Below, piece after piece: positions 4,516-59,291 of a DNA stretch of 64,000 nucleotides. The notes beneath the pieces were generated by a model. It ran no database searches. It saw only the letters and a program-made list of their open reading frames with translations, and was not told the DNA's origin. Both the position numbers and the translations under genes were made by a program. This stretch comes from Eledone cirrhosa (lineage: Eukaryota). The DNA lies in assembly GCA_964016885.1 (NCBI GenBank), contig OZ024742.1:26164001-26228000 (forward strand), read 5' to 3'. How positions within the stretch are numbered: the stretch's first letter is position 1; the number at the start of each line of letters is the position of its first letter.

Positions 4516-4718
4516 TTGATAGAGTAAGACACGCTTCACATCGGCTCCGCTATTCCATCGGGATTTACCCTTACTATTGTAAGTACCGGATAAATTTTTT
4601 AGTGCAACACATTTGGAACACAAACCCCTGTTATTTAGGGAAACATTTTTGCATTTACCCCCTTTTTAGGGGGTAAAATAAATATCTATTTTTGCCGAAA
4701 AATTTCTTTCTTGGCAGC

Positions 4719-6363
4719 ATGGCGGAAAAGATGGCAGACATGTCTGCCATTAGCTCTGCCACGCCCCCCAAGTCTGAAGAACAAAAAATAATTACAACAA
4801 AATTAGACATTGAAACAAACAAACAAAATGAAAAAACAAATGTTAAGGAAAATGAGCAAACAGAAAACAAACAAATAGAAAATAATACAAATAACGACAG
4901 GGCAACTTTCGCCCAGAAAACAAAACAATCCATTACATACACACCAATTGACCTAACGGCCGCCAGAGAAAAACTGGCCGAAGCAAAGAAACACATTGTT
5001 TTGGGGGAGAACGGAATGTTTTCCATTAACCCCCCCCCCCCCAGAATTCAAGAAAGCCCACTCTCGTCGACAACATATAGCTTCTATCCCTCCTACATGG
5101 GTAGAAGAACACAGAGAGTAAAAGTAAAAACAATGCTGCCCACAATGGACTTCTGGTGGGCTATTGCTGGCTTCATTGATATGGGCGAAGACACTATGCT
5201 GTCAATGGGGAAGGCAACTGGAGATGCGTTCCTGGGAATGGGCCTCGACATACTAGTCCAAATGAGGCCCGAAAGAATAGCACAAATCCCGGATCGCATC
5301 TGGCTGGATGACCTTACCCCAATAGACATAATTGTAGAGGGGAGAAGACCAGCATGCTATTTATGCATGGAAAGGGGACACGTTAAGGCTAACTGCCCGA
5401 AACGTATCCCCCAAAAAGGACTATTGCCCACACCCACCACAAACAGTACACCAGCACCACCCACCTCCAAAAATACACTAATACCACACACAGCAAACAA
5501 AATACAGACACCACCAACCACAAACACAACACAAACATCACCACCACCAGCACCAAACACAAGCACGACACAAAAATCACCACCACCAACCACAACACAA
5601 ACATCACCACCACCATCACCAACCACAAGCACGACACAAACATTACCACCACCACCACCACAAAACCCATTCCAAACAAATAATAAAAAAAACAGTAACA
5701 AATCTACCCCTCCCGCAAAAAAAAAACAACCACACAACACGTCCCTCCCACCTAGCGCTGAAGAGTTTCCCCCAACTTCTGAAGAAGAAGGAGGAGAAGC
5801 CTTCAGACAAGTTAAAAGAAAAAAAAGAAAACACACACCCAGCACACCACAAATAACCCACACACAAACACCAACTCCAATCAAAAACACCCCACCCTCA
5901 ACAAACAAAAATAAATCTGCGCCTCCCCTCTCCGAAACATTGACAGCATCACAAAAAAAGACGTTGCAATACACATATATAAATAAAGAAAACAAAAAAC
6001 TGGTTAAATTAATAAACAATAACCCTATGGTGCAGACCGAAGGGCCAAACTTTATCTCAACAGAGAACTTCACCCATTTAAAAATGATAAAGGTCCCTCT
6101 GGACCTTTATCGTTCCTTAAAAGAACAATTTAGACGGGACGTGAGCCCCCCCCTGTTTAAAACCGTTGAATCGCGTCCTCTTGAAAGATTTCCCCATAAC
6201 CGCCCCTCTCCCTGACACAACTCCAAATACCCCAACCCCACCACACACGTGTACCCCCACACCACCACAAAACATCCCTCCACCCAACACACCTGATGCC
6301 ATGGAAATTACGCAACCCGGAGAGGTAAGTGCTTTTCTTTCTTCACTTTCAACACCAAAATAG
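4719..6363 (+). CDS. LINE ORF1 (gag-like, CCHC knuckle), with internal deletion and C-run frameshift
   Basis: CYLCMERGHVKANC = CX2CX4HX4C; Pro/Thr-rich tract; KRKKRKH basic patch. 196-bp deletion relative to copy 4. +1 shift in the C-run at 6146-6153; the MEIT C-terminus continues in the other frame. Confidence 0.8.
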
Positions 6364-6368
6364 ATCAA

Positions 6369-9300
6369 TTGAGAGTTGGCTGTTTGAACGCGCGTGGCCT
6401 GGGCTCAGCTTGGAAGCAAGCAAAGCTTCTAAGTGACCTCAGGTCACAAAGTATAGATGTGATGGTTGTTTGCGAGAGTCGGATCAGCAGCGTGAGACAG
6501 CTGGCGCCCGCCTTCGATGACTTTGAGATGCACGCATCTCTCTGTCAACCCGGAGGCGGGGGGGGGGGAGTTGCCGTACTGCTGGATAAACGTCTGACTC
6601 TCGATGTACAGATTGTTCACTCGGACCCGGGGGGTCGATTACGGGTGCTAGACGTCGGAGGCGGTGAAGGCGGGGCTTTCAGACTGGTCGGTCTTTATGC
6701 TCCCTTCGGGGCGGAAAGAGCCGACTTCTTCCAGCGTCTGGAGACTTTTTTAGGAACGTCGCGTTCCCTGCTTTTAGTGGGGGACTGGAATGGAATCCTA
6801 GATGCGCGTTGGGACTATGCAGGGGCATGTCCCGATAGAGGGGGGTGTAGCAGCATCAAGGGGTTACTCGATCGATTCGACCTGGTCGATAGATTTCGAC
6901 TAGATTGTCCAACTGCGCCAACCTGGACCTGGGCAAACCGCAGTGGACAATCTAGATCGTACCTAGATAGGTTTTTGGTTAGGAGTAAGGATAGGGACGT
7001 ATTTAGTTGTCCAGAACTGATCATGGTTGGCTATTCAGATCACAAATTAGTGACCTGCGCGGTCAACCTTGATAGAACGCATAGACAGGGTCCCGGTTAC
7101 TGGAAGATGAACTTGTCCTTACCGACAAAGAAAGATTACAGAAACCGGATTAGTAGCTTAGTTAAGATGCGGTTGACGGGAGCGATCGTCAACAGTAGGT
7201 GGTGGATATCTCTAAAGAGAGAGATTAGAGTAAGTTCGATAGGTTACAGTAAGGAACTAGCGGCGAATAGAAATAGGAGGGAAAGGGAGTTAACAGATAA
7301 ACTAGAAGAGGCGATTAGGAGCGGAGACGTAGCCAGAGTGTTAGCGACGAGAACGGCATTGAGCCAGTTCTTTGACGCGAAGCACGAAGGCTGCGTTGTC
7401 CGAAGTAAAATACGTGCTTTAGGAAACGAGGGGACAAAAGCTGTTAGCTGGGCCCGCGTGACAGAAGCCAAGAGTGGGATTAAATCCACCATTCGGTCTT
7501 TGCGAGACCAGGATGGACGGGTGATCCTTGAACCTGAGCGAATGTGCGAGACCTTTCAAAGGCACTTTGCTCGACTGTTCGGAGGTGGCGGGGGGCCGGA
7601 CGGGGATGTGGACTTCGGTCCATACCTCGACGGTCTACCGCGTCTTTCGAGCGGCGAAGCGGAGTGCTGCGAAAGGCCAATCACAGCCACTGAAATCGGG
7701 GAAGCGCTCAGCCAATGCAGCAGACGCAAATCCCCGGGTCTCGATGGTCTACCATACGAACTTTATTTAGCTATGCCGGTCTTGTTCTCCGAACTCCTCG
7801 AGGCTGTCTATTGCAACTGGCAACAGAACGGGAGAATTCCCTGTTCTGTGACCAAGGGCGTGGTCACGCTAGTGAGGAAGGACGAGAGCAAGGGGGACGA
7901 CTTAAGTAACTTTAGGCCCATAACTCTGCTGAATGCAGAGTTACAGATTTTGGCCAAGGTGTTGGCGAAGAGGTTGGCGCTTGTGGTGGGTGGTTTGGTG
8001 GGAGACGCGCAGACATGCGCTATCCCGTCCAGGTCCATTCACGACAACCTCCACCTCATGCGATACATCATAGAGAGGGTTGGCTACGAACCCGGCTTTG
8101 GTGGGGCCCTGATCAACTTGGTTCAATCTAAGGCGTTCGATAGGGTCGACCATGGTTACCTGGATGCGGTGCTAGCGGCGGCGGGCTTCGGACCCGTTTT
8201 CAGGGGCTGGATTTCTGCCATGCACAGTGGCAACATCTACTCTAGGATTAAAGTAAACGGCTACCTCTCGGAGCCGTTTCAAATCACCCGATCCATCAGA
8301 CAGGGGTGCCCCCTCTCCTCCCTTCTGTACGTATTGACTCTCGAGCCACTGCTGCGGAAGTTGGAGTTGCTGCGGGGCATACCCCTGGAACCGGGATTGC
8401 ACAAAGCGGTCTCGGCCTATGCCGACGACGTAACAGTAATGGTGGCGGACGCCTCGGAAATCGGGGCGATCGCCACCCTACTGGGGGAATACGAAAGGCT
8501 GACGGGGGCTAAGCTGAACCAGGACAAGTCAGTCGGTTTGCAACTCGGAACGTGGAGGGGCAAACCGATGCCGTTAGACGGTGTCGTCGGGCGGTGGACG
8601 GAGGGCCCGGTGAAGCTGCTCGGGGTCTGGTTCGGACCGGACCTCCAGGTGGAGAAGAATTGGGGCGAGGTGACGAGCAGGGTGTTTGCGCTGACCCAGA
8701 AGTGGGCCAAGTGCAAACTATCACTGAAAGGTCGGGCGGAGGTGACGAACGCTTACATAGCGTCCGTCATCTACTACCGCCTGACCGTCGTGCCTTGCCC
8801 CAAGGAAAAGCTCACCATCATGGAACGCATGCTCTTCCAGTTCCTCTGGAAGAAGCGGCCTCCCATGGTGAGGAGATCCATCTGCTGCCAGCACCCTTCG
8901 AAAGGAGGGCTGGGTATGCCGTGGCTGTTGATGCGTAGGCACGCATTGAGGCTACGGCATCTACAGGTATTCCTCAACGGTCAGCCGGTGCGGGCCCCGT
9001 TTGTCAGGCGAGCCTTCCCACAGCTCGTCTCGCTCACCGAACTGCAATCCTGGGTGAAGCAAAGACCGAGAAAACTGGGCAACTGGCACACCGAGTGTGC
9101 CCAGGCGCTCACGGCTATTTGGCAAGCGGACCCGACTGTCAGTGGAGAATCCACCTCGACATTCTATAGAGGGTTGGTGGCTAGCAGGGGCGACGACACC
9201 CTTGGAGAGTCGCTAGGCATGGAGGAGGACGAACTGGCCAGCCGGTTCGGTAGAACTTTCGGCCCGGGACCCATGGACAACTTCCAGAGGTCCCTAGCCT

Positions 9301-9800
9301 GGCAGTGTTACCGGGGGGCTCTGCCCGTTCGAGAAAAGCTCTACAGACACGGGCGCCCGGGCAGGGATCCCGCGAAAAAGATCTGTCCCAGATGCGTGCG
9401 CGACGAGGAAACCGTTGCGCATGCACTGGTACACTGCCCGGGCGTTGCCGATCTGTGGGGCTACGTCGAACGACTGCTGTCGCGTGTGGCGCCGATTCGA
9501 TTAACCGCCGAGTCTGTGGTGAACATCAAGCCGCCTCCTCCCTTCAGAAATGAAGCAGAGGCGGTCTTTCTGTGCGTAATAGCCATGATGAAAGAGGTTG
9601 TGTGGTGGACGCGCCTGAAAGGTCTGAGGTCGGGTGACTTTCTCTCCGGCCATCACCTGGTTTACTTCTTCCGATACCACTTCGGAAGAAGAATCAGGAT
9701 GGAGAGAGAAGTGCTTGGTCCCAGACAGTTTTATGAAAGGTGGGTGAAAGAAGCGAGAATGGCCCGTGTAAATGGGCCTTCTCTCTACATTGTTCTGTAG
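6369..9800 (+). CDS. LINE ORF2: APE endonuclease + reverse transcriptase + CCHC zinc finger (1143 aa, open)
   Basis: EN motifs NARGL, GDWN, YLDRF, SDH; RT motifs SPGLDGL, FRPITLLN, KAFDRV, IRQGCPLS, YADD; CPRC-x8-H-x4-C. No ATG at the start; motif-A Asp replaced by Val. Confidence 0.92.
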   Translation: MRVGCLNARGLGSAWKQAKLLSDLRSQSIDVMVVCESRISSVRQLAPAFDDFEMHASLCQPGGGGGGVAVLLDKRLTLDVQIVHSDPGGRLRVLDVGGGEGGAFRLVGLYAPFGAERADFFQRLETFLGTSRSLLLVGDWNGILDARWDYAGACPDRGGCSSIKGLLDRFDLVDRFRLDCPTAPTWTWANRSGQSRSYLDRFLVRSKDRDVFSCPELIMVGYSDHKLVTCAVNLDRTHRQGPGYWKMNLSLPTKKDYRNRISSLVKMRLTGAIVNSRWWISLKREIRVSSIGYSKELAANRNRRERELTDKLEEAIRSGDVARVLATRTALSQFFDAKHEGCVVRSKIRALGNEGTKAVSWARVTEAKSGIKSTIRSLRDQDGRVILEPERMCETFQRHFARLFGGGGGPDGDVDFGPYLDGLPRLSSGEAECCERPITATEIGEALSQCSRRKSPGLDGLPYELYLAMPVLFSELLEAVYCNWQQNGRIPCSVTKGVVTLVRKDESKGDDLSNFRPITLLNAELQILAKVLAKRLALVVGGLVGDAQTCAIPSRSIHDNLHLMRYIIERVGYEPGFGGALINLVQSKAFDRVDHGYLDAVLAAAGFGPVFRGWISAMHSGNIYSRIKVNGYLSEPFQITRSIRQGCPLSSLLYVLTLEPLLRKLELLRGIPLEPGLHKAVSAYADDVTVMVADASEIGAIATLLGEYERLTGAKLNQDKSVGLQLGTWRGKPMPLDGVVGRWTEGPVKLLGVWFGPDLQVEKNWGEVTSRVFALTQKWAKCKLSLKGRAEVTNAYIASVIYYRLTVVPCPKEKLTIMERMLFQFLWKKRPPMVRRSICCQHPSKGGLGMPWLLMRRHALRLRHLQVFLNGQPVRAPFVRRAFPQLVSLTELQSWVKQRPRKLGNWHTECAQALTAIWQADPTVSGESTSTFYRGLVASRGDDTLGESLGMEEDELASRFGRTFGPGPMDNFQRSLAWQCYRGALPVREKLYRHGRPGRDPAKKICPRCVRDEETVAHALVHCPGVADLWGYVERLLSRVAPIRLTAESVVNIKPPPPFRNEAEAVFLCVIAMMKEVVWWTRLKGLRSGDFLSGHHLVYFFRYHFGRRIRMEREVLGPRQFYERWVKEARMARVNGPSLYIVL

Positions 9801-10075
9801 GTGAAGAAGTGAAGAGGAAAGGGGGAGCGCCTCCTCTCTGGGCTTCCCCCGCGAAAAGAGTTGCACACTTTTCGGGGGTATGTGCAATCCCCAGCACGCC
9901 CCCTCCCTTTTGAGGACTTTTTATTGTTATATTATTATTGTTATTCCTTTTTTCTTTACTCGATTTATGTAAACTCCCCCACTGTGTAAATGTCCCCTTC
10001 TTTTGTGCCCTCGTGGCAAATAAATAGAAATTCATCTATCTATCTATCTATCTATCTCTTGAGTTAGATAGGGGT

Positions 10076-11523
10076 CTCGGGGTCTGGTTCGGACCAGACC
10101 TCCAGGTGGAGAAGAACAGGGGTGAGGTGACGAACAGGGTGTTTGCACTGACCCAGAAGTGGGCTGAGTGCAAACTGTCCCTGAAAGGTCGGGCGGAGGT
10201 GGCGAACACTTATATAGCGTCCGTCATCTACTACCGCCTGACCTTTGTGCCTTGCCCAAGGGAAACGCTCGCCAAAATGGAGCGCGCACTCTTCCAATTC
10301 CTTTGGAAGAAGCGGGCTCCTATGGTGAGGAGATCCATCTGCTGTCAACACCCTTCGAAAGGAGGGCTGGGGATGCCGTGGCTAATGATACGTAAACACG
10401 CATTAAGGCTACGGCACCTTCAGGTATTCCTCTCCGGTCAACCGGTGTGGGCCCCGTTTGTGAGGCGAGCCTTTCCCAGACTCGTCTCACTCACCGAGCT
10501 GCAATCCTGGGTCAAGCAAAGACCGAGAAAACTGGGCGCCTGGCACACCGAGTGTGCCCAGGCGCTCACGGCTCTCTGGCAGGCGGACCCGGCTGTCAGT
10601 GGAGAATCCACCTCGTCATTCTATAGAGGGCTGGTGGTTAGCAGGTGCGACGACGCCCTCGGAGAAGCCCTAGGCATGGAGGAAGACGAACTGGCCAACC
10701 TGTTCGGTAGGACATTCAGCCCGGGACCCATGGACAACTTCCAGAGGTCCCTGGCCTGGCAATGCTACAGAAGGGCTCTGCCCGTTCGAGAAAGGCTCTA
10801 CAGACACGGGCGCCCGGGTAGGGACCGATCGAAAAAGATCTGTCCCAGATGCGTGTGCGACGAGGAAACCGTTGCACACGCATTGGTACACTGCTCGGGC
10901 ATTGCCGATCTGTGGGGCTATGTCGAACAACTGCTGTCAAGGGTGGGACCGATCCGGTTGACCACCGAGCCTATTGTGACGATCAAGCCGCCTCCCCTCT
11001 TCAAAAACGAAGGAGAGGCGGTGTTTCTGTGCGTAATAGCCATGGTGAAAGAGGTTGTATGGTGGACGCGTCTGAAAGGACTGAGGTCAGACACCTTTCT
11101 CTCTGGCCAACAACTGGTCCGTTTCTTCCGATATCATTTCGGAAGAAGGATCAGGATGGAGAGAGAGGTGCTGCACCCCAGCTGTTTCTATGAAAGATGG
11201 GTGAAAGTGGCGAGAATGGCCCGTGTGAATGGGCCTTCACTCTACATCAGACTATAGGTGAGGAAGATGAAAGACCAAGGGAGCACCACTTCTCTGTGCT
11301 CCTGAGGTGAAGGGTTGCACACTTTTTTATTGGGTGTGTGCGACCCCCCAAGGCGCCTCCTCTCTATTGAGGACTTTGTTATAAATTTTATTTTTTGTTA
11401 TATTTTATTTTATTTTTTCATATATTGTTATTGCCTCCTCCTTATTGAGGACGCCTTGTTTTGTAAACTCCCCCCATTGTACTTGTCCCACTTGTGATGC
11501 CCTGGTGGCAAGTAAAAGAAACA
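10076..11523 (+). mobile_element. Tx1-like LINE copy 2 (subfamily B), 5'-truncated
   Basis: Begins in the RT thumb (LGVWFGPDL), open to TAG at 11257. 3'UTR nearly identical to copy 5. Confidence 0.92.
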
Positions 11524-11757
11524 TATCTCTCTCTCTCTCTATCAGACGTGTGTAACTTCGTGGAGAAGTTTCCGTTAATTTATGTAGAAAAAAAACGTGA
11601 GTTTTTAGTTAAATTTTATATTATTGTGTAACTTGACCTCCCGTCTGATTTCAGGTGGTGGGTCAACTCATTTTTGCCCCTACAGGGGCGAAATATCCGT
11701 TTGAAATTTTTTCTCCATCGAATCTTGGAAAAAATATTGTAAAAGTTTGATTACGTT

Positions 11758-13609
11758 ATGAACGCTGCGTCCAACGATAATGGTGGTGGAGAGGCGATAA
11801 GACTACAAAGCTCGCAGTCAACATCGTCTTCTTCACTAGATACTATAGAGATGGAAAGACGAAATGAAAATGCAAAAACAAATTCATATCCAAACAACAC
11901 AAATGACACCAAACAGTTCAATGACAACAAAAATAACAGCAACACCAATAATGATGATAAAAAAAACAAGGATAACAACAACAAAGAAAAAAATAAAGAC
12001 AACACCAATAACACCAGCATCAAAGACAACAACAACACCAAGGAAAATACGAATAATATCAACATCGGTGACAACAAGAATAACAACAACAATAACAACA
12101 ATAATGACAACACCACCAACACGGATAATTCCACAAAGAAACCAAAAACATCTTTGCACAGAAAGTTAAAAAAAAGGAGGAACTGATATATATCGACATA
12201 ACACATGCAGAACAACTTTTAAAGGACGCTAGGAGATATGTCACTTTCAAAAAAATGGTGCTTTCAGCATCAATTCTCCGGTAGAAATTCGCAAGGAAAC
12301 TGCTCTCAAAACGATAGTTTTTAGGACAGTTTCCAATTCTACCCGAAAACCAGTCCAATTGTCACAGATAGAAATTGTTCTGGTTTTTAAAAATTCAATG
12401 AATGATATTGCATTCATTCAAAGAAGCAAACTTTTTGGGAGTATCCAACCTGTACACATTTTTCCCCTACATACATGAGAAAAAGGAGACAAAAGATCAA
12501 AATCACGAGTGTCACACCAAAGGTGAAAATATGGTGGATACTGTGCGGCTTCATCAATTTTGATTAAGAGAGAATACTGTCAGTAGGAAAGTCCCCCAGA
12601 GATGTATTCAATGGGACTAGCATTGAAGTTCTGGTGCAAATAAGCCCAGAGCGAATAGCTATGATCCCACAACGTGTACTCCTGGACGGACTCACCTACA
12701 TAAACTTTTCGGTTGAGGGTAGGCGGCCTTCATGTTAACATTGCTCTAGCGGGGGTCACCTGAAGGCTTCCTGTCCTAAATTAATGAATAAAAAAAAGGC
12801 TCTTCTGCCAACACCCATCAAAACAACACAACCACCAACACCACCACAACAACAACACCAACACACAAAAATAACCACAAAAAACACAGTCCAAACCAAC
12901 CTCACTCCACCTAAAACCACTGCAAAATCACATACAGACACAACAGCTCCCCAAGACATACCCCTCCCCAATCACACAGACGATACAACAGATGAGGCTA
13001 TCTCGCCATCACCCAGTGAAGACGAGGGAGAACCCCATCGCTTGAAAAGAAAGAAAAGACATCACAAAAGCAAAAAACCAGCAAACACTACCACAAACAT
13101 ACAACCACAAACACAAACAACAAAAACATCACAAACAAAACCCCCACCTCCTGAAAACAAAATACCTACAACAAAACGAAAGCGCACACAAGAATTACAG
13201 ACAAAAACAAACACAACACAAGAAAATTACACTTACATAAACACTGAAAACAAAACACTAATGGAGACCATCACGAACGACCCTTCGGTGAAAACCGAAT
13301 GGAAAACTTTCGCCCACTCTATTAAAAATAGCAAAATACTGAACCTAAAACTGATTAGGGTCCCTATACAAACTTATAGGTCCCTAAAAGAAACAATTGA
13401 GAAGGATGTGGGGAATTCCTGCGTGAAACCACTCAACCGCGTCCTTCTCAAATGTCTCCCCACCCCAGACACCCCCCATCCCACCAGACCCCACCCCACC
13501 AAACATCTCTCTCCCCACCCCGCCGGAAACCACTACCCATCCAGACAGTCCCTCCAACACTCCCATGGAAATCGTGCGGCTTGGTCCCCAGGAGACGAAG
13601 GGTGAGTGA
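11758..13609 (+). pseudogene. Copy 3 ORF1, disrupted
   Basis: Fragments homologous to ORF1 of copies 1/5 (broken knuckle near 12730-12775, YTYIN, KPLNRVLLK, MEIV). Stops and frameshifts. Confidence 0.8.
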
Positions 13610-13642
13610 TCTCTTTTCCTCTTTTAACTTTTCAGCACCAAC

Positions 13643-16600
13643 ATGGCCAATATAAGAGTTGGATGTGTGAACGTACGCGGCCTGGGGATGCAGGTCGCAC
13701 TGTATGGATGTGGTAGCCATTTGCGACATGATCCACAGCGAGCGACAGCTGGCCCCCATCTTCGATGACTTTGAGATCTACGCATCTCTCTGTCAACCGG
13801 GGCGGGGGGTGGGGAAGAAGTTGCCGTTTTGCTGCGGAAACACCTGGGCCTCGTAACAAAGACGGTACATCTGGACCCGGAGGGTCGACTGGTGGTCCTA
13901 GACGTTGACGGTAGTGAAGGTAGAGCCTTCAGGGTGGTGGCCGCATATGCCCCATCCGGGACACCGCGGCCAGACTTCTTCAAACGTCTAGAGACTTTTC
14001 TGGGAACATCCCTCTCCTTGCTTTTAGTGGGGGACTGGAATGGAATCCTAGATGCACGTTGGGACTATGTGGGAGCATGTCCCGATAAAGGGGGGTGTAA
14101 CAGCTTCAAACAGTTAATCGACTGATTTAACCTGGCCGATAGATATCGACTAGATTTTCCGACTGCGCCACTGTGGACGTGGACTTATCGTAGCGGAACA
14201 TCTAGATCGTACCTAGATAGGGTTCTAGTTAGAAATAAGGGTAGGGACATGTTAAGCTGTCCACAAATGTTCATGGTTGCCTATTCAGATCACAAACTAG
14301 TGACCTGCATGGCCAACCTTGATAGAACCGATAGACAAGGACCCGGCTACTGGAAGCTGAACTTGTCGTTACCGACAAGCAAAGCCTACAGTAGATGGAT
14401 TAGCACTTTAGTTAAACAGCACTTGACAGGGGCCATTGTCAACAACAGATGGCGGTACACTCTCAAGAGGGCAGTTAGATTAGACTCGATAGTTTTTAGT
14501 AAAGAATTAGCTTTAGATAGAAATAGAACCGAGAAGGAACTGGTAGATAAAGTAGAAGAGGCAATTAGAACTGGCAACGTAGCCAGCGTGCTAGCAACGA
14601 GAACGGCCTTGGACCAGTTCTTAGACGCAAAGCATGGGGGCTGCGTTGTCAGAAGTAAAAAATACGTGCTCTGGGAAACGAGGGAGCCAAAGCTGTTAGC
14701 TGGGCCCGAGTGACGGAGGCAAAAAGTGGCAACAAGTCCACGATTCGGTCTTTGGAGGACCAAAACGGACGCGTGATACGTGAGCCGAAGCAGATGTGTG
14801 CGGCTTTTCAGCGGCACTTTGCTCAACTGTTCAGGAGGGGCGACGCGCCGGGAGAGGCTATGGATTTTGGTCCATACCTCGACGGCCTACCGCGACTCTC
14901 GGACAGCGAGGCAAAGTTCTGCGAAAAGCAGATTTCAGCCACTGAGATAGGGGACGCGCTGCGCCAATGCGGCAAAAGCAAATCTCCAGGTCTCCACGGT
15001 CTACCCTGCGAATGTTACGTAGCAATGCCGGACTTATTCTCCGGTCTCCTGGAAGCGGTCTACTGCAACTGGCAACAGAACGGCAGAATTCCCAGTTCTG
15101 TAACCGGGGGCGTGGTCACACTAATCAGGAAGGACCAGAATAAGGGGGATGACATAGGAAACGTCTGGCCCATAACTCTGCTAATCACAGAGTTACAGAT
15201 TTTGGCCAAGGTGTTGGCAAACAGGCTGGCGCTTGTCGTCGAGAACCTAGTGAAGAAGCGCAGACATGCGCAATCCCGACCAGGTCCATACACGACAACC
15301 TCCACCTCATGCGATACATCATAGAGAGGGTAGGATGTAAACCCGGCCTCGGTGGGGCCCTGATCAACTTGGATCAGTCTAAGGCTTTCGATAGAGTTGA
15401 CCATCGTTACCTGGATGCGGTGCTCGAGGCGGCAGGCTTCGGACCCGTGTTCAGGGGCTGGATTGCTGCAATGCACAACAGCAATATCTGCTCAAGGGTC
15501 AAGGTGAATGGCTACCACTCGGAGCCGTTCCATATTACGCGATCCATTCGACAGGGATGCCCTCTCTCCTCCCTTCTGCACGTACTGACTCTCGAGCCAC
15601 TACTGCGGAAGCTGGAGCTATTGCACGGCATCCCTCTGGAACCGGGACTGCGGAAAGCGGCGTCGGCCTACGCCGACGACGATACAGTAATGGTGTCTAG
15701 TGCCACGCAAATCGAGGAAGTCGGCACCTTACTGAAGGAATACGAAAGTTTCACAGGAGCGAAGCTGAACCGGGACAAGTCCATCGGTTTGCAACTCAGA
15801 TCGTGGAGAGGCAAACCGATGCCTTCCGATGGCGTCGTCGGACGCTGGACGGAAGGACCGGTAAAGCTGCTCGGGGTCTGGTTTGGTCCGGACCTCCAGG
15901 TGGAGAAGAACTGTAACGAAGTGACGGCCAAGGTGTTTGCACTCACCCAGAAGTGGGCCGAGTGAAAACTATCCTTGAAAGGTCGAGCGGAGGTGGCGAA
16001 CACTTTTATAGAGTCCGCCATCTACTACCGCTTGACCGTCATGCCTTGTCCAGCCAAAACGCTCGCCAAAATGGAGCACGCGCTCTTCCGATTCCTTTGG
16101 AAGAGGCGGGCTCCTTTGGTGAGAAGATCCATCTGCTGCCAACACCCTTCTAACGGAGGGCTGGGGATGCCGTGGTCGACGATGCGCAAACACGCGCTCA
16201 GGCTGCGGCATCTCTACGTATTCCTCACCGGACAACCGGTGTGGGCCCCGTTCGTGAGGCGAGCCTACCAACGACTCGTCATGCTAACCGAGCTGCAGTC
16301 CTGGGTCAATCAAAGACCGAGGAAAATGGGCGACAGGCACATCGAATGTGCTCAGGCGGTCACAGCCCTCTGGCAGGCGGACCCGGTGATCAGTGGAGAC
16401 TACACTTCGTCATTCTATAGAGGGTTGATCCGCAGCAAGTGCGACGACGCGCTCGGTGAAACTCTAGGCGTGGAGGAAGATGAACTGGCCAGTCTGTTCG
16501 GTAGGACCTTCCGCCCGGGACCGATGGACAACTTCCCAAAGTCCCAGGCCTGGCAGTGCTACCGAGGAGCTCTAGTAGTTCGAGACAAGCTCTACAGACA

Positions 16601-17051
16601 TGGGCGCCCGGGCAGGGAACCTGCAAACAAGATCTGTCCGAGGTGCATGCGAGACGAAGAAACCGTCACGCACGCATTCTTTCAGTGCCCGGGCGTCACT
16701 GACCTGTGGGGCTATGTAGAACGACTATTGTCGCGGGTGGGACCAATCCGGTTGACCACCGAGTCCATTGTCATGATCAAACCGCCACCCTCCTTCAAAA
16801 ACGAAGGAGAGGCGGTTTTCCTTTGTGTGATAGCTATGGTGAAAGAGGTTGTATGGTGGACAAGGTTGAAAGGGCTGAGGTCAGACACCTTTCTCTCCGG
16901 CCAACAACTGATTCTTTTTTTCAAATACCACTTTGGAAGAAGAATCAGGATGGAGAGAGAGGTGCTGTACCCCAGCAAGTTTTATGAAAGGTGGGTGAAA
17001 GTGGCGAGAATGGCCCGAGTGAATGGGCCTTCTCTCTATATCAGCCTGTAG
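13643..17051 (+). pseudogene. Copy 3 ORF2, disrupted
   Basis: Starts MANIRVGC. EN/RT/CCHC motifs are spread over several frames (ORF track 13829, 14249, 14710, 15309, 15975). Confidence 0.9.
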
Positions 17052-17519
17052 GTTGAGGAAAAGGAGGAGGAGAGGAAAGGAGTACAAGCTCTTCGTACTC
17101 CTGGAGATGAGGGTTGCACATTTTTTTTTCGGGGGTATGTGTTACCCATATAAACTGTCTCCCTCTATTGGGGAAAATCGACTAACTTTTAAATTCCATC
17201 TGTGATAACATTTTACACGTTTTTATTGTATGTAAACTTCCCCCTTTGTATTTGTCCCCTTCTTTTGTGCCCCTGTGGCTAATAAAGAAATATATCTATC
17301 TATCTATCTATCTATCTTGATAGAGTAAGACACGCTTCACATCGGCTCCGCTATTCCATCGGGATTTACCCTTACTATTGTAATTACCGGATAAATTTTT
17401 CAGTGCAACACATTTGGAACACGAACCGCTGTTATTTAGGGAAACATCTTTGCATTTACCCCCTTTTTAGGGGGTAAAATAAATATCTAATTTTGCCGAA
17501 AAATTTCGTTCTTGGCAGC

Positions 17520-19343
17520 ATGGCGGAAAAGATGGCAGACATGTCTGCCATTAGCTCTGCCACGCCCCCCAAGTCTGAAGAACAAACAATAATTACAACA
17601 AAATTAGACAACGAAACAAACAAAGAAAATGAAAAAACAAATGTTAAGGAAAATGAGCAAACGGAAAACAAACAAACAGAAAATAATACAAATAACAACA
17701 GGGCAACTTTCGCCCAGAAAACAAAACAATCCATTACATACACACCAATTGACCTAACGGCCGCCAGAGAAAAACTGGCCGAAGCAAAGAAACACATTGT
17801 TTTGGGGGAGAATGGAATGTTTTCCATTAACTCCCCCCCCAGAATTCAAGAAAGCGAGAACAGAGAACACAGTTCTCTTCAGAACAATCCTAAACGAAAC
17901 AAGAAAGCCAGCACAACCCAGCCAAATGGAGATAGAGTTGGTCCTAAAAGACTATATGAAGAATATTCTCTTCATACGAAAGGACCGACTCTATGGCAGC
18001 ATTTCGGTCCTAACAAAAGACAAGGAAACGGCGGAGAAGCTTTCCATAAGCCCACTCTCATCGACAACATACAGCTTCTATCCCTCCTACATGGGTAGAA
18101 GAACACAGAGAGTAAAAATACAAACAATGCTGCCCACAATGGACTTCTGGTGGGCTATTGCTGGCTTCATAGACATGGGCGAGGACACAGTGCTGTCAAT
18201 GGGGAAGGCATCCGGAGATGCGTTCCTGGGAATGGGCCTCGACCTACTAGTCCAAATGAGGCCCGAAAGAATAGCACAAATCCCGGATCGCATCTGGCTG
18301 GATGAGCTCACCCCAATAGATATAATTGTAGAGGGGAGAAGACCAGCATGCTATTTATGCATGGAAAGGGGACACATTAAGGCTAACTGCCCGAAACGTG
18401 TCCCTCAAAAAGGACTATTGCCCACACCCACCACAAACAGTACACCAACACCACCCACCTCCAAAAATACACTAATATCACACACAGCAAACAAAATACA
18501 AACACCACCAAGCACATCACCACCACCTGCAGCAAACACAAGCTCGACACAAAAATCACCACCACCATCACCAACACAAACACCATCACCACCATTACCA
18601 ACCACAAGCACGACACAAACAGCACCACCACCACCACAAAACGCATTCCAAACAAATAATAAAAAAAACAGCAACAAATCTACCCCTCCCGCAAAAAAAA
18701 AACCAGACACGACGTCCCTCCCACCTAGCGCTGAAGAGTTTCCCCCAACTTCTGAAGAAGAAGGAGGAGAAGCCTTCAGACAAGTTAAAAGAAAAAAAAG
18801 AAAGCACACACCCAGCACACCACAAATAACCCACACACAAACACCAACTCCAATAAAAAACACCCCACCCTCAACAAACAAAAATAAATCTGCGCCTCCC
18901 CTCTCCGAAACATTGACAGCATCACAAAAAAAGACGTTGCAATACACATATATAAATAAAGAAAACAAAAAACTGGTTAAATTAATAAACAATAACCCTA
19001 TGGTGCAGACCGAAGGGCCAAACTTTATCTCAACAGAGAACTTCACCCATTTAAAAATGATAAAGGTCCCTCTGGACCTTTATCGTTCCTTAAAAGAACA
19101 ATTTAGACAGGACGTGAGCCCCCCCCCCCCCCCCTGTTTAAAACCGTTAAATCGCGTCCTCTTGAAAGATTTCCCATAACCTCCCCTCTCCCTGACACAA
19201 TTCCAAACACCCCAACCCAACCACACTCGGGCACCCCCACACCACCACAAAACATCCCTCCACCCAACACACCTGACGCCATGGAAATTACACAACCCGG
19301 AGAGGTAAGTGCTTTTCTTTCTTCACTTTCAACACCAAAATAG
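17520..19343 (+). pseudogene. Copy 4 ORF1, frameshifted
   Basis: MAEKMAD start, CYLCMERGHIKANC knuckle. Frameshifts in C-runs at ~17833-17840 and ~19173. Confidence 0.82.
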
Positions 19344-19348
19344 ATCAA

Positions 19349-22300
19349 TTGAGAGTTGGCTGTTTGAACGCGCGTGGCCTGGGCTCAGCTTGGAAGCAAG
19401 CAAAGCTACTAAGTGACCTCAGGTCACGAAGTATAGATGTGATGGTTGTTTACGAGAGTCGGATCAGCAGCGTGCGACAGCTGGCTCCCGCCTTCGATGA
19501 CTTTGAGATGCACGCATCTCTCTGTCAACCCGGAGGCGGGGGGGGGGGAGTTGCAGTACTGCTGGATAAACGTCTGGCTCTCGACGTACAGATTGTTCAC
19601 TCGGACCCGGGGGGTCGAATACTGGTGCTGGACGTCGGAGGCGGTGAAGGCGGGGCTTTCAGACTGGTCGGTCTTTATGCCCCCTTCGGGGCTGAAAGAG
19701 CCGACTTCTTCCAGCGTCTGGAGACTTTTCTAGGAACGTCGCGTTCCCTGCTTTTAGTGGGGGACTGGAATGGAATCCTAGATGCGCGTTGGGACTATGC
19801 AGGGGCATGTCCCGATAGAGGGGGGGGTGTAGCAGCATCAAGGGGTTACTCGATCGATTCGACCTGGTCGATAGATTTCGACTAGATTGTCCAACTGCGC
19901 CAACCTGGACCTGGGCAAACCGCAGTGGACAATCTAGATCGTACCTAGATAGGTTTTTGGTTAGGAGTAAGGATAGGGACGTATTTAGTTGTCCAGAATT
20001 GATCATGGTTGGCTATTCAGATCACAAATTAGTGACCTGCGTGGTCAACCTTGATAGAACGCATAGACAGGGTCCCGGTTACTGGAAGATGAACTTGTCC
20101 TTGCCGGCAAAGAAAGATTACAGGAACCGGATTAGTAGCTTAGTTAAGATGCGGTTGACGGGAGCGATTGTCAACAGTAGGTGGTGGGTATCTCTAAAGA
20201 GAGAGATTAGAGCAAGTTCGATAGGTTACAGTAAGGAAGCAGCGGCGAATAGAAATAGGAAGGAAAGGGAGTTAACAGATAAACTAGAAGAGGCGATTAG
20301 GAGCGGAGACGTAGCCAGAGTGTTAGCGGCGAGAACGGCGTTGAGCCAGTTCTTTGACGCGAAGCACGAAGGCTGCGTTGTCCGAAGTAAAATACGTGCT
20401 TTAGGAAACGAGGGGACCAAAGCTGTTAGCTGGGCCCGCGTGACAGAAGCCAAGAGTGGGATTAAATCCACCATTCGGTCTTTGCGAGACCAGGATGGAC
20501 GCGTGATCCTTGAACCTGAGCGGATGTGGGAGGCCTTTCAAAGGCACTTTGCTCGACTGTTCGGAGGGGGCGGGGGGCCGGACGGGGATGTGGACTTCAG
20601 TCCATAACTCGACGGTCTACCACGTCTTTCGAGCGGCGAAGCGGAGTGCTGCGAAAGGCCAATCACAGCCACTGAAATCGGGGAAGCGCTCAGCCAATGC
20701 AGCAGACGCAAATCTCCGGGTCTCGATGGTCTACCATACGAACTTTATTTAGCTATGCCGGTCTTGTTCTCCGAACTCCTCGAGGCTGTCTATTGCAACT
20801 GGCACACAGAACGGGAGAATTCCCTGTTCTGTGACCAAGGGCGTAGTCACGCTAGTGAGGAAGGACGAGAGCAAGAGGGACGACTTAAGTAACTTTAGGC
20901 CCATAACTCTGCTGAATGCAGAGTTACAGATTTTGGCCAAGGTGTTGGCGAAGAGGTTGGCACTTGTGGTGGGTGGTTTGGTGGGAGACGCGCAGACATG
21001 CGCTATCCCGTCCAGGTCCATTCACAACAACCTCCACCTCATGCGATACATCATAGAGAGAGTTGGCAACGAACACGACTTTGGTGGGGCCCTGATCAAC
21101 TTGGATCAATCTAAGGCGTTTGATAGGGTCGACCATGGTTACCTGGATGCGGTGCTAGCGGCGGCGGGCTTCGGACCCGTTTTCAGGGGCTGGATTTCTG
21201 CCATGCACAGTGGCAACATCTACTCTAGGATTAAAGTAAACGACTACCTCTCGGAGCCGTTTCAAATCACCCGGTCCATCAGACAGGGGTGCCCCCTCTC
21301 CTCCCTTCTGTACGTATTGACTCTCGAGCCACTGCTGCGGAAGTTGGAGTTGCTGCGGGGCATACCCCTGGAACCGGGATTGCACAAAGCGGTCTCGGCC
21401 TATGCCGACGACGTAACAGTAATGGTGGCGGACGCCTCGGAAATCGGGGCGATCGCCACCCTACTGGAGGAATACGAAAGGCTGACGGGGGCTAGGCTGA
21501 ACCGGGACAAGTCAGTCGGTTTGCAACTCGGAACGTGGAGGGGCAAACCGATGCCGTTAGACGGTGTCGTCGGGCGGTGGACGGAGGGCCCGGTGAAGCT
21601 GCTCGGGGTCTGGTTCGGACCGGACCTCCAGGTGGAGAAGAATTGGGGCGAGGTGACGAGCAGGGTGTTTGCGCTGACCCAGAAGTGGGCCAAGTGCAAA
21701 CTATCACTGAAAGGTCGAGCGGAGGTGACGAACGCTTACATAGCGTCCGTCATCTGCTACCGCCTGACCGTCGTGCCTTGCCCCAAGGAAAAGCTCACCA
21801 TCATGGAACGCATGCTCTTCCAGTTCCTCTGGAAGAAGCGGCCTCCCATGGTGAGGAGATCCATCTGCTGCCAGCACCCTTCGAAAGGAGGGCTGGGTAT
21901 GCCGTGGCTGTTGATGCGTAGGCACGCATTGAGGCTACGGCATCTACAGGTATTCCTCACCGGTCAGCCGGTGTGGGCCCCGTTTGTGAGGCGAGCCTTC
22001 CCACAGCTCGTCTCGCTCACCGAGCTGCAATCCTGGGTGAAGCAAAGACCGAGAAAACTGGGCAACTGGCACACCGAGTGTGCCCAGGCGCTCACGGCTA
22101 TCTGGCAAGCGCACCCGACTGTCAGTGGAGAATCCACCTCGACATTCTATAGAGGGCTGGTGGCTAGCAGGGGTGACGACACCCTTGGAGAGACGCTAGG
22201 CATGGAGGAGGACGAACTGGCCAGCCTGTTCGGTAGAACTTTCGGCCCGGGACCCATGGACAACTTCCAGAGGTCCCTAGCCTGGCAGTGTTACCGGGGG

Positions 22301-22783
22301 GCTCTGCCCGTTCGAGAAAAGCTCTACAGACACGGGCGCCCGGGCAGGGATCCAGCGAAAAAGATCTGTCCCAGATGCGTGCGCGACGAGGAAACCGTTG
22401 CGCATGCACTGGTACACTGCCCGGGCGTTGCCGATCTGTGGGGCTACGTCGAACGACTGCTGTCGCGTGTGGCGCCGATTCGATTAACCGCTGAGTCTGT
22501 GGTGAACATCAAGCCGCCGCCTCCCTTCAGAAACGAAGCAGAGGCGGTCTTTCTGTGCGTAATAGCCATGATGAAAGAGGTTGTGTGGTGGACGCGCCTG
22601 AAAGGTCTGAGGTCGGGTGACTTTCTCTCCGGCCATCACCTGGTTTACTTCTTCCGATACCACTTCGGAAGAAGGATCAGGATGGAGAGAGAAGTGCTTG
22701 GCCCCAGACAGTTTTATGAAAGGTGGGTGAAAGAAGCGAGAATGGCTCGTGTAAATGGGCCTTGTCTCTACATTGTTCTGTAG
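19349..22783 (+). pseudogene. Copy 4 ORF2, disrupted
   Basis: Frameshift in the G-run at ~19820, TAA at 20605-20607 and frameshift at ~20805. LDQSKAFD and YADD intact. Confidence 0.9.
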
Positions 22784-23086
22784 GTGAAGAAGTGAAGAGG
22801 AAAGGGGGAGCGCCTCCTCTCTGGGCTTCCCCCGCGAAAAGGGTTGCACACTTTTCGGTGGTATGTGCAATCCCGAATACGCCCCCTCCCTTTTGAGGAC
22901 TTTTTATTATTATATTATTATTGTTATTCCTTTTTCTTTACTCGATTTATGTAAACTCCCCCACTGTGTATTTGTCCCCTTCTATTGTGCCCTCGTGGCA
23001 AATAAATAGAGATTTATCTATATATATATACACATTCGTATACATATAAATATTTATATACCTATATTTATTCGTATATATCTCTC

Positions 23087-23172
<86 letters not shown>

Positions 23173-23406
23173 TTAGAAACACACAGATACATGCGGACAC
23201 ACACATATATACATGAATGCATCCGCACCCAACTGCGAGTTAAGGGTGCCAACTTCACCGATGTTGCTCAATGAATGACTGGGACAGACCAATTCAGTTT
23301 GAACCAGACTGAACCAGTATCAGAGTTAAAAATACATTATGAAGAGAGAAGAAACATTTAGATATAATTGGTAATAAAATGTATCATACCTAAACTGCTC
23401 CTAAAT

Positions 23407-23494
23407 TCCTCGACTACGTAGTTTCGTGGCATAAACAAAAACAATATATCAAAGATATAGAGTCCTTGCGAGGTCTGCCAACTTATCAAGAGGA
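23407..23494 (-). ncRNA. Type I hammerhead ribozyme, U3-A8 variant
   Basis: Minus strand reads TCCTC TTGATAA GTTGGCA..TGCCAC GAAA CTACGTAG TC^ GAGGA; stems I, II and III all pair. Confidence 0.75.
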
Positions 23495-23997
23495 TACCTC
23501 ATTTTACTAGTTTCAAGAACGCGTCTACACGACGTGAGAAAGAATCCCAAAAGGCGGAGGGGGAGATAGTCACGCGATATAACGGTCGAGAAACAGAGCT
23601 AAGCCTCTTATAACCACGAAGAAAATACCACGGAGGCGGAGGGGGTATTCATATTGAGGCCGTAGAAGAGGTAGTGAAGAAGGCGAGAAGTACGAGTAAT
23701 GGAAGCTTTCCAGTTGTCCCCACACTTCAAAGATTGCTCGACCAGAGGGAGTTATTAATATATTTAGAAACACACAGATACATGCGGACACACACATATA
23801 TACATGAATGCATCCGCACCCAACTGCGAGTTAAGGGTGCCAACTTCACCGATGTTGCTCAATGAATGACTGGGACAGACCAATTCAGTTTGAACCAGAC
23901 TGAACCAGTATCAGAGTTAAAAATACATTATGAAGAGAGAAGAAACATTTAGATATAATTGGTAATAAAATGTATCATACCTAAACTGCTCCTAAAT

Positions 23998-24085
23998 TCC
24001 TCGACTACGTAGTTTCGTGGCATAAACAAAAACAATATATCAAAGATATAGAGTCCTTGCGAGGTCTGCCAACTTATCAAGAGGA
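23998..24085 (-). ncRNA. Type I hammerhead ribozyme, second identical copy
   Basis: Same sequence as 23407-23494. Confidence 0.75.
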
Positions 24086-25019
24086 TACCTCATTTTACTA
24101 GTTTCAAGAACGCGTCTACACGACGTGAGAAAGAATCCCAAAAGGCGGAGGGGGAGATAGTCACGCGATATAACGGTCGAGATATATATACATATACGAA
24201 TGTATATATATGTATGTGTGTGTGTGTGTATGTGTGTGTGTGTCTTTGTGTGTATGTGTGTATGTATGTCTTTGTGTGCTTGTGCGTGCATATACGTACA
24301 ACCTATACACATATTATACACATCTATACACATGTGTACATCTATACACATCTATACACATATCCGAGGCGGATGAGGGTATCTCTTCGTTGTAGAATCT
24401 GTGAAACTACATATTACTATAATATTATGTAGATCAGTATAGAATTTGTTTGCGTATCGATGTATGTATTTGTGAAGGAATTCGTCTATGTAAGAGGCTA
24501 TATCCGAGATAATGAGGGGGAAAGAGAGATTGAACGTGTTAGAACATTCATAAGTTTGTAACTTACGACATTTTGAAAGATAAGCCACAATATAGTCGAA
24601 TTGAAATGTCTGTCTTATCAGTGCTCTATAACGAACATACACACCATGATGCAGTACTAATTAATTCTAGTTAGATATATAAAAACAATCTATTTTTATA
24701 TGCTACTTCTTCAATACAATTTTTATCTGTATTATCCAATATTTCCGAATCAGCTCTAATTCCACAATAGGCTAAAGAACCATTGTCTCATTGCTACAAC
24801 AAAAATAACAATAATGTATTTATGTATTTCTGTTTTGTTGGTTGTTTCATAAATAATAGTTTCTTGTCTTGTTCCCGAATCATCCTATCATTCTTTTTAT
24901 CATCGTTGTTCCTTCTGTTAGTATAGAATTAGTATTGTTTACAAACATTTCTACTGACATAGACACACATACAAACATATATACATATGTGTATATGTAT
25001 ACATATCTCTCTATATAGT

Positions 25020-29099: not shown

Positions 29100-29150
<51 letters not shown>

Positions 29151-29155
29151 TATAT

Positions 29156-29545
29156 GTTTCTTTTATTTGCCACTAGGGCATCAAAAGTGGGACAAGTACA
29201 AAGGGGGGAGTTTACACAAAAAGGCGTCCTCAATAAGGAGGAGGCAATAACAAAATATAAAAATAAATTAAGATATAACAAAAAATAAAATTTATAACAA
29301 AATCCTCAATAGAGAGGAGGCGCCTTGGGGGGTCGCACACACCCCCGAAAAAAGTGTGCAACCCTTCTCCTCAGGAGCACAGAGAAGGGGTGCTCCCTTG
29401 GTCTTTCATCTTCCTCACCTATAGTCTGATGTAGAGTGAAGGCCCATTCACACAGGCCATTCTCGCCACTTTCACCCATCTTTCATAGAAACGGCTGGGG
29501 TGCAGCACCTCTCTCTCCATCCTGATCCTTCTTCCGAAATGATAT
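29156..29545 (-). mobile_element. Tx1-like LINE 3' fragment (subfamily B)
   Basis: Reverse complement of the ORF2 end (YHFGRRIRMERE..YIRL*) and the 3'UTR of copy 5. Embedded in (TA)n. Confidence 0.93.
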
Positions 29546-39633: not shown

Positions 39634-39706
<73 letters not shown>

Positions 39707-39708
<2 letters not shown>

Positions 39709-40533
39709 GGCGTCCCCCTTTATTTACGTGTCCCAACGACTTTTTTTAGCCGTTGTTCGCACCAACCCGAGACATATGGCCCTTAAAGCGATGAAATGCC
39801 CAGGACGGTTGGAGGGTCACTGATGAAGGACTCACTTTTTCATATGTATCCCATTTGCAACGCCGCAGCTCCATTATTATCATATTTACATATATATTTT
39901 TTCCATGCTGCCATTCGTGTTTCGTTTGTATCTTTACCCTTTCTAGCAGTCTCTCTCTCTGTTAGCCTCCTCCTCAACTTTCACTCACTCATTCTCTGTC
40001 ACTACCTCTCCACCTCCTCTTTCCTCCTCCTCCTTCAAGTTTGACCTGTGTGTAATTCTTTTCTCGCGCGGTCTTGACCAAGCTGGTATGGAATTTTTTT
40101 TCTCTCTCTCTTTCGTCTGCGACTTCACAAAACTTACGTTTACTGAATTCGTAGAACAGACCCCTTTATCTTCTTCTTCTTCTTCTTCTTCTTCTTCTTC
40201 TTCTTCTTCTTCTTCTTCTTCTTCTTCCTCTTCTCTCCTTTTTCTCTCTCTCTTCCCCCCCCCCGTCAAACTTGGGCGAAATTATATTCATAGAGATCTG
40301 GGACTTGTCTATTTCTACTCACTTTCCGTTGCTAAAACTTTTTTGTTGTAACTCTGGCGTCCCCCTTTATTTACGTGTCCCAAAGACTTTTTTTAGCCGT
40401 TGTTCGCACCAACCCGAGGCATATGGCCCTTAAAGCGATGAAATGCCCAGGACGGTTGGAGGGTCACTGATGAAGGACTCACTTTTTCATATGTATCCCA
40501 TTTGCAACGCCGCAGCTCCATTATTATCATATT

Positions 40534-40540
<7 letters not shown>
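39707..40540. repeat. (TA)n-flanked unit with ~187-bp terminal direct repeats
   Basis: 39707-39896 is repeated at 40354-40540 (period 647); internal (CTT)n. Confidence 0.85.
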
Positions 40541-40599
<59 letters not shown>

Positions 40600-53141: not shown

Positions 53142-53397
53142 CTCTATATATATCTATCTATCTATATATCTATCTATCTCTGGGATGGAGACACGCGTTT
53201 AACTTGCTGAGTAAGTTCTGTTTAAATTTCTATAGAAATTCTTGTCTGATAACTTTAATTTTTGTACCATTTTGTAGAGGGATTGCCAGGTCAAACTTTG
53301 ATCTGGTCAGTCTCTCAAAATATTCTACGCCTTTAGGCAAAATAGTTAAACAAAAAAATAAAAGTTTTTTCTTGTTGAAAAGTCAATATTTTTTTAA

Positions 53398-55191: not shown

Positions 55192-55215
55192 GTGCCTTTT
55201 CTCTTCACCACCAAC

Positions 55216-58200: not shown

Positions 58201-58653
58201 CACGGGCGCCCGGGTAGGGACCCCGCCAAAAAGATCTGTCCCAGATGCGTGTGCGACGAGGAAACCGTTGCACACGCATTGGTACACTGCTCGGGCGTAG
58301 CCGATCTGTGGGGCTATGTCGAACAACTGCTGTCAAGGGTGGGACCGATCCGGTTGACCACCGAGTCTATTGTAATGATCAAGCCGCCTCCCCCCTTCAA
58401 AGATGAAGCAGAGGCGGTGTTTCTGTGCGTAATAGCCATGGCGAAAGAGGTTGTATGGTGGACGCGTCTGAAAGGACTGAGGTCAGGCACCTTTCTCTCT
58501 GGCCAACAACTGGTCCGTTTCTTCCGATATCATTTCGGAAGAAGGATCAGGATGGAGAGAGAGGTGCTGCACCCCAGCCGTTTCTATGAAAGATGGGTGA
58601 AAGTGGCGAGAATGGCCCGTGTGAATGGGCCTTCACTCTACATCAGACTATAG
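55216..58653 (+). pseudogene. Copy 5 ORF2 (EN-RT-CCHC) with one nonsense codon
   Basis: Single frame; TGG>TAG at 56671-56673; motif A reads LVQSKAFD. Confidence 0.92.
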
Positions 58654-59291
58654 GTGAGGAAGATGAAAGACCAAGGGAGCACCCCTTCTCTGTGCTCCTG
58701 AGGAGAAGGGTTGCACACTTTTTTCGGGGGTGTGTGCGACCCCCCAAGGCGCCTCCTCTCTATTGAGGACTTTGTTAAAAATTTTCTTTTTTGTTATATC
58801 TTATTTTATTTTTATATTTTGTTATTGCCTCCTCCTTATTGAGGACGCCTTTTTGTGTAAACTCCCCCCTTTGTACTTGTCCCACTTTTGATGCCCTAGT
58901 GGCAAATAAAAGAAACATATCTATATATCTAACTATATATCTGTATGCCTATATCTATCTATATCTCCAACTCTCTCTCTCTCATCCACTCTCTCTCTCG
59001 TTATCTATCAATATCTCCCGCAGATAGATTGGCAGCATTTAACATGTAGGTGTGCGGTGGATTAAGAGCAGAGGGAGGGGTTAGAAAATCTGAAAAATCA
59101 CTAAACGGGGGAGGGGGAGGTTATTTCAAACACGAGTGTAATTATTAATTCCTAATTTTTTTTCAAATTCTTTTCCTTTCTTTTTTCTTCGTATCCTCAT
59201 TGCCACGTATATTGTACAGTTTTTATGACATTTTCTATTTAGTAAAATAATCTATTTCCGAACAGCCAAAAATTAAAAAATAAAACTTTAA

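Follow-up and report, generated by a model that had tools for sequence, protein, structure and literature searches.

LINEs of the Tx1 clade, such as Kibi, Koshi and the crocodilian (TTCC)n and (TTTC)n elements, have two open reading frames (ORFs), encode an APE endonuclease and a reverse transcriptase (RT) and insert into microsatellites (PMC4494074). The family that we analysed in Eledone cirrhosa shares these traits, with TATC as its target repeat and TTA in two of its lineages, E and F. It also carries a motif resembling a 5' splice site (donor) at the end of ORF1 and a predicted RNA duplex, here called the zipper, between the two ends of ORF2, whereas the Tx1-clade account, in its accessible sections, speaks of neither a splice signal nor an ORF2-flanking duplex (PMC4494074). 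We likewise found no description of such a donor or zipper in Tx1-group LINEs in the open-access literature, outside which lie the Repbase reports and most subscription papers.

The Arabidopsis element EVD, a Ty1/Copia retrotransposon that produces the shGAG RNA, offers the nearest parallel to a splice site at this position. According to the available part of that work, U1 both splices the EVD transcript and represses its premature termination (PMC5580714). Just like in EVD, the 5' splice site-like motif of our family follows the structural gene, and the outcome in EVD is that structural protein exceeds catalytic protein (PMC5580714). However, EVD is an LTR element with a short intron whose splicing is coupled to early termination, and this was demonstrated on RNA (PMC5580714). 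The intron proposed here would comprise the whole of ORF2, would leave the 3'UTR in the spliced RNA and is deduced from DNA sequence.

Human L1 is another LINE whose RNA has splice sites, functional in L1 and putative in our family, and its spliced RNAs can leave DNA copies, termed SpIREs, which amount to about 2% of full-length L1s (PMC5860796). As far as the accessible text of that study goes, splicing in SpIREs either stays inside the 5'UTR or reaches into ORF1, ORF2 is retained in cis, and the resulting copies are dead ends (PMC5860796), whereas we found no spliced copy in the present family. HAL1, an ORF1-only derivative of a LINE (PMC5753468), represents the product expected from an RNA spliced in the proposed way, and our searches found none here. 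Furthermore, the mechanism that keeps ORF2p low in human L1 is described, in the portion of the literature available, as incompletely understood and AUG-independent (PMC11485995).

A two-ORF LINE family in TATC and TTA repeats

The window, a stretch of 64,000 nucleotides (contig OZ024742.1 of the 3.0-Gb assembly GCA_964016885.1, positions 26,164,001 to 26,228,000 of the forward strand), contains six copies of a two-ORF LINE set in TATC repeats, four of them full-length and two truncated. Copy A1 (4517-10035, plus strand, boundaries approximate) has TATC repeats on both sides and contains ORF1 at 4719-6215 with a CCHC knuckle, an open frame for ORF2 at 6297-9800 encoding the APE endonuclease, RT and zf-RVT domains, and an AATAAA close to the 3' end (10019-10024). 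The other full-length copies, also on the plus strand, are C (11540-17305), which has several frameshifts and its ORF2 stop at 17051, A2 (17318-23020, stop at 22783) and B (53180-58930), with an intact ORF1 at 53398-55191 and the ORF2 stop at 58653. Two 5'-truncated B copies lie at 10076-11525 on the plus strand and, as a short 3' end, at 29133-29545 on the minus strand. Between 4500 and 23050, five copies stand head-to-tail in tandem, each within the repeat left by its neighbour. The window also has two near-identical local duplications, possibly assembly artefacts, at 23165-23591 and 23756-24182 (427 nt, 100%) and at 39706-39897 and 40353-40544 (192 nt, 99%).

The family is large and young. 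We counted 534 exact subfamily A junctions in the genome, 2,279 junctions of the A, B and C types, and 7,875 ORF2 3' ends on one strand. For comparison across the family we used 80 full-length copies from 11 lineages (A, A', B, B2, C, C', C2, D, E, F and G), a non-random sample from hand-picked loci chosen for diversity.

ORF2 matched the Pfam families PF03372, PF00078 and, under its cut-off, PF13966, ordered as an APE endonuclease at the N-terminus, an RT and a zinc-binding region at the C-terminus, and its closest solved structure is human L1 ORF2p (PDB match, E 1e-112). Intact ORF1s encode 597-697 amino acids with a CCHC knuckle (A 611, B 597 and C 638 amino acids in the MEI frame), and their atlas look-alikes were zf-CCHC (0.92) and, as a lead, a ZCCHC3-type RNA-binding protein (0.89). 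An ORF2 with APE, RT and zinc region next to a separate ORF1 of nucleic-acid-binding type places the family in the L1/Tx1 group, and its copies are bounded at both ends by TATC or TTA repeats, the microsatellite target preference that marks Tx1. We provisionally keep the Tx1 label of the preliminary description. The label fits the microsatellite targeting reported in the accessible account of that clade (PMC4494074).

Several observations point to exchange and switching within the family. Lineages E and F lie in (TTA)n, whereas A, B and C lie in (TATC)n, so the target repeat switched within one family (sampled loci L124, L135, L137, L138, L204 and L210). 5'UTRs were exchanged between lineages, as in an A copy with a D-type 5'UTR and a C' copy with a B-type one (L092/L093, L090, L088, L128/L191), and the exchanged 5'UTRs each carry a short hairpin upstream of the AUG. 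Lineage G, with about 15 copies (L148-L160, L183-L192), is chimeric, combining a C-type ORF1 end with a B-type junction and ORF2.

The window copies A1, A2 and C carry frameshifts upstream in ORF1; those of A1 and A2 are slips within a C-run, which in A1 leads to an early stop. Intact genomic copies established that the MEI frame, adopted in the preliminary description, is the true frame of ORF1, and in intact A copies this frame continues through the donor (10 of 14 scoreable copies in an unbiased set of 16 listed). An ORF1 stop 110 nt upstream of the donor in subfamily A had been considered and was dropped, as the sample behind it had been selected for identity to A1. In all 30 subfamily A copies compared (L001-L030) the ORF2 AUG is replaced by ATA (6360-6362 in the window), letters that also form the ORF1 stop TAG; subfamily A is a LINE that was active recently and whose ORF2 lacks an AUG. 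ORF1 and ORF2 share a frame in only some lineages. In B and A' they are parted by one in-frame stop, and one D copy, with the donor variant GTTGGT, has no stop between them and would permit in-frame read-through (L090:2460-2540).

A conserved donor-like motif at the end of ORF1

The preliminary description had proposed that every full-length copy has a consensus 5' splice site at the end of ORF1, and this claim extended well beyond the window. The motif reads GAG/GTAAGT (the slash marks the putative splice boundary) in A1 (6322-6330, boundary at 6325), A2 (19305) and B (55188), where it overlaps the TAA stop, and AGG/GTGAGT in C (13602). All 80 copies, from all 11 lineages, carried an AG/GTRRGT-like motif where ORF1 ends, with GTRRGT exact in 77 and a single variant in each of the other three, although the scoring script took the best GT in a 65-nt window and is therefore biased toward finding a donor. 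Positions -1, +1, +2, +5 and +6 are identical in all 11 lineages. The assignment of the donor to phase 0 in A, 1 in C and 2 in B relative to the MEI frame was arithmetically correct; over the whole sample the phase is 2 in A', B, B2, C', C2, D and E, 1 in C, F and G, and 0 in A. An equally strong motif was found at none of 35 ORF1-end junctions of distant LINEs from metagenome contigs and in 15 of 615 background windows.

The motif, like the zipper described below, could owe its persistence to shared ancestry and stop-codon context alone, with no function at the RNA level, since the lineages are related and 86 of the 355 fourfold sites do not vary among the 11. However, the donor stays in place in phases 0 and 1, where the ORF1 stop codon has shifted off it, and the distant LINEs have neither donor nor zipper. 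Moreover, the zipper co-varies by lineage, and the covariation tests described below largely rule out an explanation by ancestry alone, which we regard as very improbable. Because GTRRGT is conserved across phases and is rare in the background and in distant LINEs, the donor is very likely under constraint at the nucleotide level, as an RNA sequence, irrespective of codon phase. Its conservation in 80 of 80 copies and its lack in the 35 distant LINEs further suggest that it is probably a selected U1 site.

A second donor-like motif lies in the 5'UTR (GTAAGT at 4579-4584 in A1; at 11597 in C and 53211 in B, all on the plus strand). In the diverged 5'UTRs, a count by eye placed it in 30 of 34 legible cases, 30-95 nt from the 5' end, and each of those copies retains it. 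It occurred in four of five F copies, and six E copies had weaker AG/GT variants or lacked it. Just upstream of the ORF1 AUG in subfamily A (4717) there is a plausible acceptor that could serve as its partner.

AATAAA signals are distributed unevenly, with 1.3-5.0 per copy on the ORF1 side vs 0-0.9 in ORF2. U1 bound at the ORF1 end would block use of the AATAAA signals in the A-rich ORF1 and so preserve the full-length RNA, its likely role here being this protection and not the excision of ORF2. Suppression of an upstream polyadenylation signal is known from HIV-1. For U1 acting independently of splicing in a retroelement, the accessible account of EVD provides a precedent (PMC5580714).

The end of ORF2 as a putative acceptor

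With a donor at the end of ORF1, the whole of ORF2 could be an alternatively spliced intron, extending in A1 from 6325 to 9800: unzipped RNA would yield an ORF1-only mRNA with its native 3'UTR, and zipped RNA would stay full length, serving ORF2 translation and reverse transcription. The precise position of a strong donor at the ORF1 end in all 80 copies favours such an intron, and the Ty1/Copia RNA, in its accessible account, offers a precedent (PMC5580714). The preliminary description had rested its acceptor on a TAG/G at the end of every ORF2. TAG/G is indeed found at 9800, 11257, 17051, 22783 and 58653, the second of these belonging to the 5'-truncated copy that has no donor, and the short minus-strand B end has TAG/GT like the other copies. 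The rule thus holds for the three subfamilies of the window but not for the family, as lineage E ends in TAA. Among the 80 copies, ORF2 ends in TAG in 68 and in TAA in 10, nine of the latter being lineage E, with two unscoreable; by lineage, TAG/GT occurs in 10 of 11. By a home-made score applied to about 260 AGs, that of the ORF2 stop comes first in A and A', and in all 10 TAG lineages its rank lies between 1 and 24, within the top 10%. None of 18 distant LINEs from metagenome contigs ended ORF2 in TAG/G. The sequence 3' of the ORF2 stop is itself donor-like (AG/GTRRG) in B, C2 and F, with the look of a recursive-splice motif (9798-9806, 58651-58659; L204-L214).

A prompt in-frame stop after joining donor to acceptor, said to occur each time, likewise held for the three subfamilies of the window and in 6 of 10 lineages across the family, against 3.7 expected (P=0.083, not significant); by copy, a stop followed within four codons in 51 of the 68 with a TAG end. 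In phase 2, the ancestral state, a match arises almost by itself, because G-T with two purines after it makes a stop in three of four cases. Of the four lineages that have left phase 2, three (A, C and F) have the matching stop, as splicing of ORF2 would predict, and G does not, its chimeric make-up having moved the donor to phase 1 with the match gone. In lineage F, a divergent phase-1 lineage whose ORF2 N-terminus has about 54% identity, the prompt stop is present in 10 of 11 copies, and the spliced protein would end in GR, much like the GK of the unspliced one. B2, C', D and G lack the match. All four would regain a prompt stop by using the AG 7 nt upstream of the ORF2 stop, but C would then fail, so that C requires the distal AG and C' the proximal one. 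Overall, extending the comparison to more subfamilies retained the donor in all 11 lineages, whereas five of them (E, B2, C', D and G) turned out to have no acceptor or no phase match; B2 and E make up 11 and 10 of the 69 distinct ORF2 3' ends listed.

Precise intron-less genomic copies were sought for the A, B and C types and none was found, which leaves the suggestion of HAL1-like, ORF1-only retrocopies without support. Subfamily A gave no spliced-type junction vs 534 unspliced ones in the genome, and the four A ends not preceded by TAG were point mutants. B-type searches returned nine and four matches, none spliced, both being empty on the reverse strand and covering maybe half the genome, and the C-type search returned 22, none spliced, of which 15 were examined in context. 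None of 111 3' ends in the sampled loci was spliced, and no spliced retrocopy stands against the 7,875 3' ends counted on one strand. With some 230 nt expected between the junction and the 3' end, truncated copies would also reveal splicing. Cis-preference, as set out in the accessible part of the L1 study (PMC5860796), weakens the force of this test without voiding it. A protein search for ORF1 with the spliced C-terminus returned one distant protein only. Among contigs from four runs of unrecorded type over 4525-17320, one X4 contig crosses the donor unspliced (6199-6545) and another spans the acceptor (9432-10023); no donor-acceptor joint was among the 15 listed of 404 contig joints, but contigs lose rare forms, and we attach no weight to this result. 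The preliminary description had named loss of the acceptor or phase match in other subfamilies and a lack of precisely spliced copies as observations that would count against its intron, and both were encountered in part, the former in some lineages and the latter in the genome searches. Together with the missing AG at the ORF2 stop of lineage E and the burial of the acceptor in the predicted zipper, this makes us regard an alternatively spliced ORF2 as possible but somewhat doubtful.

The donor might instead be joined to another partner, such as a downstream host acceptor, a lineage-specific acceptor in the 3'UTR or an AG in the spacer that would fuse ORF1 to ORF2. In lineage E a high-scoring AG is found some 166 nt inside the 3'UTR, and C-type spacers end in a pyrimidine tract and CAG right before the ORF2 AUG. 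However, exon-1-anchored searches for B and C, able to show most other joins, gave no spliced join, and the downstream AGs in A and B are weak. The spacer AG is absent from A', B and E, and its intron would measure about 34-39 nt; we rejected such a mini-intron as too short and unconserved. A different splice partner is therefore improbable in our estimate.

A predicted zipper between the ends of ORF2

The sequence following the donor is complementary to the region around the ORF2 stop. The 5' arm of the zipper runs from donor position +7 to about the fifth ORF2 codon, the 3' arm extends from the last nine ORF2 codons 30 nt into the 3'UTR, and 3.4 kb separate them. In A1 the predicted arms lie at 6331-6381, containing the pyrimidine spacer and the first ORF2 codons with the ATA near 6360, and at 9775-9828, containing the putative acceptor TAG/GT (9798-9802), with a pairing energy of -48.6 kcal/mol. 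The corresponding predicted arms, all on the plus strand, are 13611-13662 and 17028-17082 in C (-50.2), 19311-19361 and 22758-22811 in A2 (-44.8), and 55196-55237 and 58628-58669 in B (-33.9). In the core, the near-invariant TGT-A-GGT at the ORF2 stop pairs with ACC-A-ACA upstream of the ORF2 AUG, and the pyrimidine tract contributes a CTCT that is matched by AGAG, so that the putative acceptor and the ORF2 start codon are buried in the predicted duplex. Lineage E keeps both donor and zipper, its TAA end sitting in a loop.

Representatives of all 11 lineages had predicted energies of -27.9 to -52.6 kcal/mol. Among the 157-168 ORF2 windows compared, the zipper partner came out best in 8 of 11 lineages, and z was -3.1 to -6.0 in 10 of 11, lineage G being weak (z -1.6). 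Furthermore, arms from the same lineage paired 5.9 kcal/mol better than crossed arms (0 of 20,000 permutations, P<1e-4); the signal was present in the non-coding arm (P=0.0008) and in the coding arm (0 of 20,000 permutations), and none of 20 control windows reached P<0.01. Both marks of a long-range duplex, stability above background and covariation, were thus found. The core helix is almost invariant, with one two-sided change, so the covariation signal comes from the variable arms, in lineages that are related. Folding the whole 3.8-kb A1 RNA to its minimum energy gave no pair spanning more than 3 kb, in B the long-range pairs of the whole-RNA fold differ in register from the zipper, and in wider folding windows the donor itself is predicted to be partly paired. 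A best-ranked ORF2 start-stop duplex was found in none of 10 distant LINEs from metagenome contigs. As these distant LINEs have neither, donor and zipper are confined to this lineage of LINEs. We infer that the duplex may form in vivo.

The pyrimidine tract, TAG/G and purine-rich, enhancer-like sequence, which the preliminary description took for splice signals, are present, yet they are largely accounted for by the zipper: its pairing explains TAG/GT, the pyrimidine tract, the purine-rich sequence and the tract after the donor without any need for splicing. We therefore favour, with a probability of roughly 45%, the reading in which zipper and U1 site together limit ORF2 output and shield the unspliced RNA. 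The RNA would zip ORF2 into a 3.4-kb loop that conceals its start and stop codons, and the ORF2 protein would be rationed accordingly. The zipper could be opened by a ribosome, either one that terminates on ORF1 at the foot of the stem or one that completes ORF2 on the other strand. ORF2 initiation would be gated in this way, and in lineage A it would have to be AUG-independent. The buried AG would at the same time keep splicing of ORF2 rare. A point against this reading is that a U1 site exactly at the ORF1 end is equally needed by an ORF1-only mRNA.

In plant RNA viruses, long-range RNA pairings control the expression of the polymerase: a sequence just beyond the first stop codon pairs with a site kilobases away near the 3'UTR and promotes readthrough or frameshifting. 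The zipper resembles these in pairing a site past the first stop with a distant site near the 3'UTR. Reinitiation is a likelier target here than readthrough or frameshifting, since only some lineages have the two ORFs in a common frame.

A related possibility, which we hold tentatively and below even odds, is that ORF2 as a whole behaves as a retained intron of the spliceosomal type, with the co-evolving zipper that joins its start and stop codons as its gate. If so, together with a second, candidate intron in the 5'UTR, the family would make a gene-like, three-exon ORF1-only mRNA besides its unspliced genomic RNA. This would amount to a retrovirus-like strategy of two RNAs, of which we found no description for LINEs in the literature searched.

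How bicistronic LINEs make much ORF1p with very little ORF2p remains an open problem, and the zipper family bears on it. The family offers a compact, co-evolving cis element, consisting of a U1-type site and a duplex that opposes the start and stop of ORF2. With eleven natural variants, one of them AUG-less and one acceptor-less, the question of how ORF2 is rationed becomes directly testable.
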